Shown here: one piece after another, positions 18,413-63,626 of the stretch
How the letters are laid out: the number at the start of each line of letters is the position of its first letter
How positions within the stretch are numbered: the stretch's first letter is position 1
Notes under the pieces: generated by a model
Database searches by the model: none
Seen by the model: only the letters and a program-made list of their open reading frames with translations
Told to the model about the DNA's origin: nothing
Assembly (NCBI GenBank): GCA_030141605.1
Contig: JAQGDQ010000902.1
Coordinates: 18,060 to 82,059, forward strand
Direction of reading: 5' to 3'
Length of the DNA stretch: 64,000 bases
Origin: Tubiluchus corallicola
Lineage: Eukaryota; Animalia; Priapulida
Translations under genes and position numbers: made by a program

Positions 18413-18590
18413 ATGGGTAACAGTTCATCGAATGCAAAACAGGTGTCGGTAACAGATGTACGTGGATCACAGTCTAAATTCTCCAGCAGACCAGCTTCAA
18501 GAGTTTCTTCTCAAGGGAAGATTTCACAAGGGAAGCCATCAAGATCTGGTGCAGCTTTGTCAAAGGTCTCTGCACGGCAACGTGAAATAC
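18413..18590 (+). CDS. Coding exon 1: MGNSSS myristoylation motif, Ser/Arg/Lys-rich leader
   Basis: ATCATGG start context; GTAAGT donor at 18591; phase 1. Confidence 0.85.
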
Positions 18591-63500: not shown

Positions 63501-63626
63501 TTGCATTTAACATGTTTGTGTGTTTACAGGTTGAACCTGAACCCGGAAGTAGCCGGTGTAAGATTGTAGTCGAAGACTGTGAACTGGGAGTGCCTTATGT
63601 TATGAAAGTATTTGGCATCCCATTAG
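18413..63626 (+). CDS. Spliced gene with 25 coding exons, at least 1056 aa, 3'-incomplete: myristoylation leader + 7 cupredoxin-like repeats + CHB_HEX_C/Fn3-associated domain + at least 2 FN3 domains
   Basis: All 24 introns are GT-AG with compatible phases and the joined 3169 nt has no stop. The motif V-x-V-x2-GF-x-P-x2-V-x-I-x2-GD-x-V-x-W-x-W...H...G-x-YYY recurs 7 times across exon junctions. Confidence 0.9.
20136..20281 (+). CDS. Exon 2 (AKVSALDGIHVLVTKSGF...GDTINFSW...CSGHNIQQ), cupredoxin repeat 1
   Basis: TTTTTAG acceptor (NAGNAG), GTGAGT donor; phase 1 to 0. Confidence 0.9.
20737..20855 (+). CDS. Exon 3 (VIHDGEQLVPVVGGISSG...PGSYHFVT)
   Basis: Polypyrimidine CAG acceptor, GTAAGT donor; phase 0 to 2. 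Confidence 0.9.
21632..21695 (+). CDS. Exon 4 (GGVRCTPFQIMVEDKEFEQVK)
   Basis: TTTTTGCAG acceptor, GTATGG donor; phase 2 to 0. Confidence 0.85.
23833..24755. repeat. G-rich ~28-29 bp minisatellite with ~228-bp higher-order repeat
   Basis: Monomer GAGCTAGGGACACCCCACTGAGGGAGTGT and variants. Identical ORF translations recur at 228-bp spacing. Confidence 0.95.
25844..26001 (+). CDS. Exon 5 (VDDDGFKPNKVKIMRGDKVKWYWNECEFPHSII...), repeat 2
   Basis: TAG acceptor, GTGAGT donor; phase 0 to 2; strong plastocyanin-like pattern. Confidence 0.9.
27584..27760. repeat. 60-bp tandem repeat, three copies
   Basis: ATCATTTTTTGACCGCAATTTTAGCTCAACCACATGTGCTACTATTGTCTTCCCTTA repeated in register with the 60-nt lines. 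Confidence 0.95.
28129..29026. mobile_element. Foldback/MITE-like element with ~290-bp imperfect inverted arms
   Basis: ACTTATGTAATTAGAAAAGAAAATTCTTAAC... is mirrored by ...GTTAAGAATTTTCTTTTCTAATTACATAAGT. Similarity extends to ~28420/28730. Confidence 0.8.
29604..29651 (+). CDS. Exon 6 (SASLAVQSGYFLREFP)
   Basis: TTTCAG acceptor, GTAAGT donor; phase 2 to 2. Confidence 0.85.
31691..32098. repeat. 21-bp minisatellite (CACAATCAGACATAAGATTGT)
   Basis: Directly visible, roughly 19 degenerate units. Confidence 0.92.
32271..32357 (+). CDS. Exon 7 (VAGIYYFQTEGDCIGKNHICVVEVHDGQR)
   Basis: TTTTGTAG acceptor, GTGACA donor; phase 2 to 2. Confidence 0.88.
34041..34137 (+). CDS. Exon 8 (DHMIEVLDRTFSPMSISICAGDRVWWKWDKYK), repeat 3
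   Basis: TAG acceptor, GTATAG donor; phase 2 to 0. Confidence 0.9.
35597..35668 (+). CDS. Exon 9 (CKRKHTIYQVDPLPLNKASGDILQ)
   Basis: TTTTCAG acceptor, GTAAAA donor; phase 0 to 0; supplies the C-x3-H motif. Confidence 0.82.
37795..37829 (+). CDS. Exon 10, 35 nt (PTKFGFKWQSPS)
   Basis: Uncommon AAG acceptor after a T-tract, strong AG|GTGAGT donor; needed to bridge phase 0 to 2. Confidence 0.7.
39369..39526 (+). CDS. Exon 11 (KCGLMSHVFHDLGVYYYCDQNYEEIAEYMGVITV...AFQP)
   Basis: CTGTAG acceptor, GTATGG donor; phase 2 to 1. Confidence 0.9.
39616..42373. mobile_element. 2.76-kb TTAA-flanked TIR DNA transposon, non-autonomous, Kolobok-like
   Basis: TTAA|GAACGAGTCCGCGAGAGCACCATGCA ... TGCATGGTCTTCTCGCGGACGCGTTC|TTAA. 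RR..YY ends with a TTAA target fit Kolobok rather than piggyBac (CCY). Confidence 0.75.
43121..43386 (-). mobile_element. 5'-truncated RTE-clade LINE insertion
   Basis: Translates KIQEARLRWYGHLKRR...GNRRRGRPK (RTE ORF C-terminus), has a (GAA)n tail, and a perfect 19-bp TSD TAATAATTTATTACAGTAT at 43102-43120 and 43387-43405. Confidence 0.9.
43552..43677 (+). CDS. Exon 12 (DVIKVNRGDFVWWCWEPNLGFNSVMEV...), repeat 4
   Basis: TTTTTGCAG acceptor, GTAAGT donor; phase 1 to 1. Confidence 0.9.
43771..44456. mobile_element. pogo/Tigger-like (Tc1/mariner superfamily) MITE
   Basis: TA|CAGTCATACCTCGGTTTTCGA ... TCGAAAACCGAGGTATGACTG|TA, a perfect 21-bp TIR. Confidence 0.88.
44914..45521. mobile_element. 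piggyBac-like non-autonomous element
   Basis: TTAA|CCCTTTCACTAC ... GTAGTGAAAGGG|TTAA. Confidence 0.82.
45777..45931 (+). CDS. Exon 13 (KTCKFMSEDTRR...VGVFIYNV...SIIVKASPK)
   Basis: T-tract AG acceptor, GTAAGT donor; phase 1 to 0. Confidence 0.9.
47421..47537 (+). CDS. Exon 14 (AHNIKITDDHYIPRVVTIHPDDWLFWSWEDCKWAHNVIQ), repeat 5
   Basis: TTTTTAG acceptor, GTAGGT donor; phase 0 to 0. Confidence 0.9.
47650..48520. mobile_element. Degenerate MITE with a second TIR element nested at 48080..48331
   Basis: Outer: CTCCACATGCACATAATGCGT..GATCC..ATGCATGATGCGT versus ACGCATCATGCAT..GGATCACGCATTACGTACACATGGAG. Inner: TATAGGTTTTATACATCAAATGTAGAC versus GTCTACATTTGACGTGTAAAACCTATA, with ~21-bp subrepeats. 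Confidence 0.65.
49213..49280. repeat. (GATA)n microsatellite
   Basis: Directly visible. Confidence 0.95.
51062..51757. repeat. (GA)n polypurine tract of ~700 bp
   Basis: Directly visible; contains a duplicated CAGCAAAAAGAGAGAAAG..CACGGGACAG interruption. Confidence 0.98.
53409..53795 (+). CDS. Exon 15 (VSHQGVPVEKGFCSG...KGVFYYV...GDVICWEF...EPGMYHFTCEAFPPMDK), repeats 5-6
   Basis: 129 open codons, CAG acceptor, GTAAGC donor; phase 0 to 0. Confidence 0.92.
54901..55014 (+). CDS. Exon 16 (YGEIQETVSSVIVDKRSDSANVRVSSDGFVPSYININR)
   Basis: TTGCAG acceptor, GTAGGA donor; phase 0 to 0. Confidence 0.88.
55535..55783. repeat. (GATAAT)n hexanucleotide microsatellite
   Basis: Directly visible, about 40 perfect units. 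Confidence 0.98.
56570..56650 (+). CDS. Exon 17 (GQSVFWAWKDCENEEHNIIHVTPGDDG), repeat 7
   Basis: TTTTTAG acceptor, GTGAGT donor; phase 0 to 0. Confidence 0.9.
56747..56870. repeat. (GTT)n(ATT)n compound microsatellite
   Basis: Directly visible. Confidence 0.95.
57281..57437 (+). CDS. Exon 18 (AAQSVVQGPNAFNSG...FLYTFLEPGVYSVTSHGASGHLCTISVTEQ)
   Basis: TTCCAG acceptor, GTGAGA donor; phase 0 to 1. Confidence 0.9.
57541..57695 (+). CDS. Exon 19: CHB_HEX_C/Fn3-associated domain N-half (LTSDTPGVKIYYTTDGSLP)
   Basis: Signature IYYT-x-DGS-x-P; CTAG acceptor, GTAAGC donor; phase 1 to 0. Confidence 0.9.
57893..58546. repeat. ~39-bp minisatellite (TGATGTCAGCATTAATTGTTTTTGCTATTGTTAGCATTA)
   Basis: Directly visible degenerate tandem units. 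Confidence 0.92.
59021..59127 (+). CDS. Exon 20: CHB_HEX_C domain C-half (IYHDESGITF...VRAMAV...DSKVFNS)
   Basis: TTTTTCAG acceptor, GTGAGC donor; phase 0 to 2; the V-R-A-x-A...S-x-V pattern completes the domain. Confidence 0.88.
60281..60359 (+). CDS. Exon 21 (CFHIMRDAPSPTQEEIMKQRALEAEM), linker
   Basis: CTACAG acceptor, weaker GTTGGC donor; phase 2 to 0. Confidence 0.75.
61125..61247 (+). CDS. Exon 22 (RKKTEWVNQPKIV...MEVYWDN...IKGYK), FN3 #1
   Basis: TACAG acceptor, AG|GTTTGT donor; FN3 W...I-x-GY pattern. Confidence 0.85.
61661..61813 (+). CDS. Exon 23 (LFLNQ...SLNVSGLASERRYAVQLVVYP...SNIV), FN3 #1
   Basis: TTGCAG acceptor, GTAAGT donor; FN3 GL-x5-Y-x-V motif. Confidence 0.9.
62222..62377 (+). 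CDS. Exon 24 (DLETP...TLVIVWSTSGLNHNGYVVQLNGTSIGDK), FN3 #2
   Basis: TTTTAG acceptor, GTATGG donor; phase 0 to 0. Confidence 0.88.
62423..63243. repeat. ~31-bp minisatellite (AGTAGTTGTGACATGAGTTTAACTCACATTA)
   Basis: Directly visible tandem units with several variant classes. Confidence 0.93.
63530..63626 (+). CDS. Exon 25 (VEPEPGSSRCKIVVEDCELGVPYVMKVFGIPL), FN3 #2; gene continues past window
   Basis: TTTACAG acceptor, GTATGA donor; phase 0 to 1. Confidence 0.88.

Follow-up and report, generated by a model that had tools for sequence, protein, structure and literature searches.

Textbooks present cupredoxin folds as extracytoplasmic carriers of copper. What, then, are seven of them doing in the head of a giant protein that appears to be cytoplasmic, their copper cysteines lost and invariant residues standing in their place? 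The question is raised by a gene of the priapulid Tubiluchus corallicola, found in a 64-kb stretch of contig JAQGDQ010000902.1 (called here the window).

A predicted gene of 25 exons

An independent reading of the DNA predicts a gene on the forward strand that runs from an ATG at 18413 to a donor at 63626 (Table 1). It has the same number of exons, 25, and the same length, at least 1,056 amino acids in one open frame, that an initial annotation of the window had arrived at. All 24 predicted introns begin with GT and end with AG, and the 3,169 nt of predicted coding sequence hold a single frame across 45 kb, with no stops. The predicted protein is colinear with proteins from Elysia (36% identity over 1,080 columns, E=0) and Ptychodera (35% over 1,025, E=0), which puts the gene model far beyond chance. 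At the last donor no stop has yet closed the frame, and the gene extends further than the window does. Judged by its homologs, the part within the window is expected to be only the N-terminal third of the full protein, with about 2,000-3,000 further residues to come.

Table 1. Predicted features of the gene, by position in the window
Feature	Position	Strand	Content
RFX X-box-like palindrome	17614..17626	.	tight pattern on both strands
Exon 1, coding part	18413..18590	+	MGNSSS myristoylation-type start; Ser/Arg/Lys-rich leader, aa 1-59
Exons 2-4	20136-20281, 20737-20855, 21632-21695	+	cupredoxin repeat 1, aa 66-162
Exons 5-7	25844-26001, 29604-29651, 32271-32357	+	repeat 2, aa 163-264; conserved C195, H199, H256, C258
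Exons 8-11	34041-34137, 35597-35668, 37795-37829, 39369-39526	+	repeat 3 (aa 265-372), start of repeat 4
Exons 12-13	43552-43677, 45777-45931	+	repeat 4, aa 373-479, the most divergent repeat
Exons 14-16	47421-47537, 53409-53795, 54901-55014	+	repeats 5 and 6 (aa 480-664), start of repeat 7
Exons 17-18	56570-56650, 57281-57437	+	repeat 7, up to aa 766; His703, Ser751
Exons 19-20	57541-57695, 59021-59127	+	CHB_HEX_C_1 / Fn3_assoc domain
Exons 21-25	60281-60359, 61125-61247, 61661-61813, 62222-62377, 63530-63626	+	linker, FN3-1, most of FN3-2

The start codon lies in a good context. A splice acceptor directly upstream of the coding part of exon 1, at 18398, allows, on the DNA alone, for a further coding exon ahead of it in the same frame; the sole candidate upstream ATG is out of frame. 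One RNA run, nearly devoid of sequence from the locus, matched 57200-64000 in two short intronic pieces only, spanned no junction and is uninformative on expression. The 5' end of the gene lies inside one arm of a perfect palindrome of 8.2 kb, possibly an artefact of assembly.

A family of unnamed giants

A full HMMER scan recovered full-length relatives of 3,004–4,042 aa in molluscs, an annelid, an orthonectid, echinoderms and hemichordates, along with partial models in flatworms, the orthologue Macrostomum A0A1I8IHZ5 being one flatworm member. (Exon 15, used as query in a word-index search of longer proteins, had returned none from 285 candidates.) None of the full-length relatives carries a functional name, in keeping with the initial annotation, which knew of no named gene with this order of domains. 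Among them are Ptychodera XP_070557721, S. purpuratus LOC577931, C. gigas LOC105321045, Aplysia LOC101845075, Capitella ELT90741 and Intoshia OAF69324, all uncharacterised automatic gene models from RefSeq or GenBank, and all colinear with the window protein over its whole modelled length at 25-37% identity. The gene tree matches the expected animal groups, and the window protein, with identities of at most 39%, sits on a long branch that falls within neither the mollusc clade nor the echinoderm-hemichordate clade. The family behaves as single-copy orthologues across bilaterians, and the architecture is no one-off.

The full-length proteins share one layout: an MGxxxS leader, seven cupredoxin folds, CHB_HEX_C, two FN3 domains, a disordered acidic spacer that varies in length from about 220 to 920 residues, about 13 further FN3 domains, a TlpA-like thioredoxin fold with WCxxS, and a basic tail. 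Sixteen of 20 full-length proteins have 15 FN3 domains in all, three have 14, and that of Intoshia has 11. The initial annotation had called for a search for this architecture, with Gly2, in animals and protists; the architecture turned up in bilaterians, 19 of 31 homologs opening with MGxxx[ST], while searches of limited sensitivity gave no named match in protists.

How far does the family reach? Sequence searches of limited sensitivity found no named match in vertebrates, cnidarians or protists, and no named orthologue in insects, nematodes or vertebrates. No chain in the PDB belongs to the family by sequence or profile search. The ESM Atlas offers bacterial and archaeal look-alikes only (scoring 0.76 against the Patella head and as high as 0.90 against the divergent fragment P0028), which say nothing about range or gene transfer, and a metagenome scan with P0004 found one 1-kb contig, without neighbours. 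Literature searches by 12 gene identifiers or by domain combinations met no description of the family. There was no true match in the supplements of PMC12551290 (oyster identifier), PMC10396339 (urchin identifier), PMC5173321 and PMC4974748 (12 of 13 files), blanks that are uninformative because such lists may give top markers only or use other identifiers. One number in the PMC4974748 supplement did match, and is unrelated.

Cupredoxin folds without their copper site

The seven cupredoxin-like repeats of the initial annotation are upheld through homologs, the fold evidence coming from models of those homologs and not of the window protein. The head of the Patella homolog, modelled by AF2 with pLDDT 80.4 and pTM 0.67 over 1,089 aa, contains a repeat 5 that superimposes on the Nitrosopumilus purple cupredoxin 5fc9 (Z 14.7, rmsd 1.3 over 87 residues) and on plastocyanin (Z 11.8). 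Profile matches to amicyanin or plastocyanin occur at repeats 5 and 7 (E 0.003-0.07), and Pfam's Cupredoxin_1 exceeds its cut-off in several homologs. The other five repeats are assigned by alignment and a recurring strand pattern. Taken singly, exons gave no cupredoxin or FN3 match above the Pfam cut-off; 18 of the 25 were represented, by 18 pieces. Together these models and matches support the fold in the repeats.

The copper site is another matter. At the position of the type-1 copper cysteine, as defined by alignment with amicyanin, only one of 216 repeats has Cys (repeat 6 of the window protein, which lacks the first His); Ser, Thr, Asp or a hydrophobic residue replaces it in the other 215. 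The combination of His, Cys and His occurs in none of the 216, and the type-1 (blue) ligand set, His ... Cys-x2-His-x-Met, is absent from the repeats. What is kept is the first ligand, His, in repeat 2 (26/32), repeat 3 (30/31), repeat 5 (28/31) and repeat 7 (31/31), and with it a specific replacement: the cysteine position is Asp in repeat 3 of all 31 proteins (His304 and Asp354 in the window protein), and Ser in repeat 5 (30/31) and repeat 7 (31/31). In repeat 2, C195, H199, H256 and C258 are all present in 18 of 31 homologs. Since the cysteine survives once in 216 repeats and the triad nowhere, a copper-redox role is unlikely, and the repeats would be structural rather than devoted to electron transfer. 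The earlier picture of them as copper or redox sensors of the plastocyanin type is not borne out by the count.

The nearest known systems resemble the head only in part. Plastocyanin, amicyanin, 5fc9 and bacterial tandem-cupredoxin proteins (P0026) share the fold of the single domain, and often the first His, but the family has seven tandem copies, no export signal and a chain of more than 3,000 aa. Multicopper oxidases, ceruloplasmin and factors V/VIII likewise carry several cupredoxin domains per chain and are among the Foldseek matches, and factors V/VIII reuse the fold largely without catalytic copper. They are, however, secreted, whereas the family is apparently cytoplasmic; whole-chain TM is only about 0.1; the family's repeats are of the small plastocyanin type; and neither a type-1 site nor a Cu-oxidase Pfam match was found on family members. 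Whole-chain Foldseek matches, axonemal chains included, were treated at that TM as generic beta-sandwich noise.

The N-terminus and the side of the membrane

The start MGNSSS fits the pattern of Gly2 with Ser or Thr at position 6, a motif match that suggests myristoylation. MGxxx[ST] opens 19 of the 31 homologs, and in 4 more it follows closely on a predicted extension; it is absent from the first 320 residues of the remaining 8 models, several of them partial. The Intoshia protein lacks Gly2. The initial annotation had also described a basic leader, and the window protein bears this out, with 11 K/R against 2 D/E in residues 1-59. As a basic cluster beside the myristate site the feature is weaker in homologs, whose first 60 residues hold 5-14 K+R against 2-8 D+E.

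Hydropathy over 19 residues reaches only 1.55 in the window protein, which therefore has no transmembrane helix, and the claim that it lacks a hydrophobic segment stands. None of the 19 homologs that start with MGxxx[ST] has a signal-like N-terminus, nor any transmembrane-like segment except a hydrophobic stretch within the thioredoxin domain. In bivalves and snails, those predicted upstream extensions that were inspected have a polar or acidic character, not a hydrophobic one. As far as sequence can tell, this is probably an intracellular, membrane-directed protein with a putatively myristoylated Gly2, much as the initial annotation had it: an uncharacterised beta-sandwich chain inside the cell.

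CHB_HEX_C, the FN3 rod and the far end

Exon 19 alone matches CHB_HEX_C_1 above cut-off (E 9.7e-8); the scores for CHB_HEX_C_1 / Fn3_assoc (PF13290 / PF13287) are 32.3 bits against a curated cut-off of 22 and 30.5 against 23. The domain was therefore rightly called, as were, through homologs, the two FN3 domains that follow it. So too was the link to DZANK1, the best PDB match of the family's head profile (11xu, E 9.7e-5), though a single sequence as query gives E 0.51. DZANK1 is, like the family, an intracellular animal protein with a domain of CHB_HEX_C type, but one domain of 90 residues is all they share: the zinc ribbon and ankyrin repeats are DZANK1's, and the full-length members have no Pfam match to either. 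A preprint (10.64898/2026.06.11.731632) places DZANK1 on the doublet of the ciliary transition zone.

The FN3 repeats match Pfam's Ig_RIMBP2 in 9 full-length members (E 1e-10 to 4e-26), and titin chains rank top when the full-length profile is compared with PDB sequences. RIM-binding proteins, titin and twitchin are, as these matches (Ig_RIMBP2, 6q9m, titin) reflect, intracellular FN3 arrays like the family, but they have no counterpart of its myristoylation-type start, cupredoxin head or thioredoxin end. The full-length members contain no SH3, Ig I-set or kinase domain; in place of the three FN3 domains flanked by SH3 that mark RIM-BP, they have 11-15 FN3 and no SH3.

The far end lies outside the window and is described from homologs only. 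The Ptychodera C-terminal model has the TlpA/ResA fold (Z 16.5, rmsd 2.0 over 141 residues; TM 0.79 by target), and matches to Thioredoxin_8 are weak (E 3e-4 to 0.06, below the Pfam cut-off). WxxWCxx[STA] is found in 21 of 23 homologs, and the consensus residue in place of the second Cys is Ser; the resolving Cys is thereby missing, and with it the CxxC dithiol. The family shares the fold and the first Cys with the thiol-disulfide oxidoreductases TlpA, ResA and SdbA and with the nucleoredoxin/tryparedoxin-type Thioredoxin_8 proteins, but differs from them in having CxxS in place of CxxC. The tail motif RPx[ST][AS] is likewise present in 21 of 23; Intoshia has neither thioredoxin Cys nor tail motif. 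The initial annotation, confined to the window, missed two thirds of the protein, including this fold, the sole plausible redox centre. LC8-binding TQT motifs were considered as well; they are scattered, at positions that are not conserved.

A tether from membrane to microtubules?

I propose, tentatively (at a probability of roughly 0.4), that the protein ties a membrane to microtubules as a structural tether anchored by myristate, and that cilia are the most plausible site. Myristoylation of Gly2 would fix the N-terminus to the membrane from the cytoplasmic side. Together, the seven cupredoxins without copper, CHB_HEX_C and the first two FN3 domains would make up a fairly ordered head that binds partners, the order resting on the Patella model. 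The acidic spacer and the run of about 13 FN3 domains would then bridge the distance, and the monothiol thioredoxin fold and basic RPxSA tail would engage a partner at the far end. Microtubules or axonemal proteins are the most likely candidates, and thiols may control the contact.

The same tether might work outside cilia, as a membrane-anchored cortical scaffold at synapses or secretory sites in the manner of RIM-BP or, in muscle, as an elastic, titin-like linker from membrane to filament. This is possible, if on the unlikely side. The Ig_RIMBP2 and titin matches point that way, FN3 runs with a variable disordered spacer resemble elastic proteins, and Intoshia has kept muscle and nerves (PMC6543705). 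Yet the titin and fibronectin matches are those of generic FN3, the domains that would accompany them (SH3, Ig I-set, kinase) are missing, and insects, nematodes and vertebrates, all with synapses and muscle, yielded no named orthologue. A metal or redox sensor at the membrane, with Zn, Cu(I) or similar bound at sites other than type 1 and mixed disulfides formed at WCxxS, is improbable. It would make sense of the retained His in repeats 2, 3, 5 and 7, of the Asp and Ser that hold the cysteine position, of the Cys/His quartet of repeat 2 and of the conserved thioredoxin Cys, and bacterial proteins that pair cupredoxin with AhpC-TSA exist, at TM below 0.3 a lead only. Against it, no repeat has the His, Cys and His triad, some 2,500 residues separate the putative redox modules, a resolving Cys is missing, and Intoshia does without the thioredoxin Cys altogether.

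It is highly improbable that the protein is exported through an unrecognised signal to serve in the matrix, the lumen or adhesion. Solved structures with cupredoxin, FN3 and TlpA folds are mostly extracytoplasmic, the many conserved cysteines could form disulfides, and the acceptor before the ATG leaves room for an upstream coding exon; but the 19 homologs that start with MGxxx[ST] show nothing like a signal peptide, the bivalve and snail extensions are polar or acidic, and the only upstream ATG is out of frame. Scarcely credible, finally, is the idea that splicing was modelled wrongly or that the gene is a dead copy. The model was predicted from DNA, and its 5' end sits in the suspect palindrome, but 25 canonical exons in one frame match homologs end to end, and relatives have RefSeq models with multiple isoforms.

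Why place the membrane-to-microtubule tether in cilia? Myristoylated proteins enter cilia by way of UNC119, axonemal dynein subunits include thioredoxin domains, ciliary proteins often have basic RPxSA tails, and ciliary genes are driven by RFX factors. The clues from the family, all of them indirect, are the DZANK1 match, an X-box-like palindrome and the retention of the gene in Intoshia, an animal with a ciliated free stage from a lineage that has lost many bilaterian genes (PMC6543705). The palindrome, a putative match to the RFX X-box consensus, lies about 790 nt 5' of the ATG and 15 nt after the donor of a candidate 5'-UTR exon (GTAAGT, ~17599). A tight pattern, picked after the site was seen, occurs at 2 loci in 54.7 kb against 0.3 expected; because a relaxed pattern occurs at 6 loci in the same 54.7 kb (about 0.11 per kb), a site within 1 kb of the start is modest evidence only. 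Weighing against a ciliary place, CHB_HEX_C occurs widely and the match to DZANK1 is a weak one; Intoshia, with its muscle and nerves, lacks Gly2, thioredoxin Cys and tail motif; and the RIM-BP-like matches of the FN3 domains fit a synaptic role equally well. Motile cilia are present in vertebrates, cnidarians and protists, and the family, with no named match in any of them in searches of limited sensitivity, is therefore not a core part of the axoneme.

The family has been kept in molluscs, annelids, flatworms, echinoderms and hemichordates, and even in the reduced parasite Intoshia. A bolder and rather improbable version of the ciliary tether would make it an ancient bilaterian giant, a mechanical linker in the cilia of invertebrates that is gated by redox state or metal and joins ciliary membrane to microtubules through its FN3 rod. 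Blue-copper folds would have become its cytoplasmic head of seven domains, with pockets rebuilt from His, Asp and Ser, and a monothiol thioredoxin at the far end would be the switch. Such a linker would have been overlooked because it is seemingly absent from the fly, nematode and vertebrate models. If the family is ciliary, it would add to cilia a large structural component not seen in the vertebrate and Chlamydomonas models.

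Gene model and extent of the protein

Exons picked independently from the window sequence number 25, span 18413-63626 and are separated by introns of 103-5,871 nt, all of them GT-AG. Joined, they give 3,169 nt and 1,056 codons with no stop, which equals the 25 exons and 1056 aa of the initial annotation, and the frame has not closed by the last donor. Among 1.84 billion proteins, 34 match the longest exon (53409-53795) at E<=0.001. The model aligns end to end with homologs from Elysia (36% identity over 1,080 columns), Ptychodera (35% over 1,025), Macrostomum (32%), Anneissia (32%) and Intoshia (25%), and this homology therefore supports the choice of junctions.

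The initial annotation saw one third of the protein and missed the two thirds beyond the window, which are represented here by homologs. In these the head is followed by an acidic spacer of about 220-920 residues (26% D/E in Ptychodera). Sixteen of 20 proteins have 15 FN3 domains in all, three have 14 and Intoshia has 11; the last FN3 domain carries an inserted helical hairpin. The C-terminal domain folds as a thioredoxin of the TlpA/ResA type (Z 16.5, rmsd 2.0, 141 residues; TM 0.79 by target). It contains WxxWCxx[STA] in 21 of 23 homologs; RPx[ST][AS] occurs in the basic tail of 21 of 23 as well, the two exceptions being Intoshia and one truncated model.

Fold of the head and loss of the copper Cys

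The head comprises the leader, seven repeats, a CHB_HEX_C_1 domain, matched by exon 19 of the window (E 9.7e-8), and two FN3 domains. An AlphaFold2 model built on the Patella homolog (1,089 aa, 29 sequences; pLDDT 80.4, pTM 0.67) has a disordered leader and a strand set that recurs seven times. Structurally, it comes closest to the Nitrosopumilus purple cupredoxin, which superposes on 87 residues of repeat 5 (Z 14.7, rmsd 1.3); plastocyanins score Z 11-12 and FN3 domains Z 10-12. The structure annotated at the outset is borne out.

What does not hold up as stated is copper sensing. In a register fixed by alignment with amicyanin, the copper Cys is present in one of 216 repeats from 32 proteins, and the full His+Cys+His set in none. 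The replacements are orderly: Asp in repeat 3 (31/31), Ser in repeat 5 (30/31) and Ser in repeat 7 (31/31); these repeats keep the first His. A Cys/His quartet in repeat 2 is conserved in 18 of 31 homologs. As judged by these residues, electron transfer of the blue-copper type is excluded, and the repeats may have a rebuilt pocket. The family is real, conserved and unnamed, and puts the cupredoxin fold to unusual use.

A proposed tether

Of 31 homologs, 19 begin with MGxxx[ST], four have it after a predicted polar extension, and eight do not show it within their first 320 residues. The N-terminus is not hydrophobic in any of the 19, in keeping with the location first suggested. The 19-residue hydropathy maximum is 1.55 in the window protein; that of the family, 2.23, sits in the thioredoxin domain. 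The window protein has a distinct basic cluster (11 K/R, 2 D/E), which is mild in homologs. The protein is likely, from these features, to be cytoplasmic and myristoylated.

I propose that the lipid anchor would hold an ordered head, continued by a long spacer, an FN3 rod and a basic tail. This layout is that of a tether, and the family would then fit an already known kind, the giant intracellular beta-sandwich tether. UNC119 brings myristoylated proteins into cilia, RFX factors drive genes of cilia, axonemal dynein subunits include thioredoxin domains, and ciliary proteins frequently bear basic RPxSA tails. A ciliary tether is the reading I favor, at a probability of roughly 0.4, on three indirect grounds: the best PDB match of the head profile is DZANK1 (E 9.7e-5), there is an X-box-like palindrome, and Intoshia retains the gene. 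According to a preprint (10.64898/2026.06.11.731632), DZANK1 belongs to the transition-zone doublet; the passages in question do not name its binding domain. Against cilia stand the lack of named vertebrate or protist matches and of any family member found in the PDB, and the Intoshia homolog, which is without Gly2, the thioredoxin Cys and the tail motif.

Intoshia has a ciliated free stage, yet it has muscle and nerves as well (PMC6543705), and a cortical, synaptic or muscle scaffold outside cilia, for which the same layout would serve, is a rather less probable alternative. A metal or redox sensor could draw on the quartet of repeat 2 and the thioredoxin motif; with His+Cys+His in no repeat, it is unlikely. 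An extracellular protein would suit the usual place of cupredoxins; the MGxxx[ST] starts speak against it, and it is very improbable. That the gene model is wrong is scarcely credible beside the end-to-end alignments.

Range of the family

The Ptychodera head matches 22 of 3,777 candidates among proteins of 2,033-6,470 aa, all 3,191-3,882 aa long and from hemichordates, echinoderms, molluscs and Capitella. A profile search of proteins of 73-2,358 aa matches 26 of 7,992 candidates, the named ones being from molluscs and Macrostomum. Labels are "uncharacterized", "hypothetical" or automatic domain names such as "fibronectin". Many of the short matches are nameless; among those with names, chordates, arthropods, nematodes, cnidarians and protists are not represented. 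Searches by 12 member gene identifiers or domain combinations, with subscription journals mostly uncovered, found no published account, and the parts consulted of the supplementary data of PMC12551290 (plus main-text passages), PMC10396339, PMC5173321 and PMC4974748 gave no match.

A 30-row tree that omits Plakobranchus and a second Macrostomum model groups echinoderms with hemichordates at 100/100 and recovers bivalves, gastropods and subgroups of each. It follows animal groups, as single-copy orthologues would be expected to. On it the window protein forms a long branch that falls between spiralian and ambulacrarian groups (92/95, not starred).

Four unnamed, divergent fragments from environmental contigs (P0028, P0004, P0010, P0019; 21-35% identity) span several repeats with few or no introns and may stretch the family into further lineages. 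In a Macrostomum protein of 2,222 aa (P0079), labelled "protein kinase domain-containing", the C-terminal half contains the family head, and Pfam finds no kinase domain; the protein is probably a fused gene model.

The 5' region and introns

Features of the 5' region and introns (window positions)
Feature	Position	Detail
Giant palindrome	1-18596	arms 1-8227 / ~10367-18596, 99.8% identity
Candidate 5'-UTR exon	17540-17605	GTAAGT donor ~17599
X-box-like palindrome	17614-17626	pattern match
GC-rich minisatellite array, intron 4	23850-24780	apparent higher-order unit ~228 nt
Imperfect inverted repeat (~900-nt), intron 5	28060-29060	by eye: ~28090-28500 vs 28740-29030
Further minisatellite arrays	near 31690-32100, 57900-58550, 62420-63250	
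Short frame, intron 11	43108-43389	minus strand
Long microsatellites	51070-51760, 55540-55790, 56745-56870	
Second X-box-like palindrome, intron 19	58605-58618	both strands

A tight X-box pattern finds 2 loci against 0.3 expected. The relaxed pattern finds 6 where 1.2 are expected, which means that the background model sets the expectation too low. Adjoining the intron 19 site is a 48-nt piece matched by a contig of the RNA run X1 at depth 78, which suggests that the region is a repeat.

Between the arms of the giant palindrome lies a 2.1-kb spacer containing (TTG)n and (TGAA)n tracts. The left arm, cut by the window edge, carries on the minus strand a mirrored exon 1 (ATG at 184), upstream region and X-box. 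Either the gene's 5' end was duplicated head to head very recently, or the palindrome is an artefact of a fold-back in the assembly. The ATG of the candidate 5'-UTR exon would be out of the main frame if joined to the acceptor at 18398, and is possibly an upstream ORF. Translated, the intron 11 frame appears similar to the 3' end of a LINE retrotransposon of the RTE type, and the intron 5 inverted repeat is possibly a MITE-like element.
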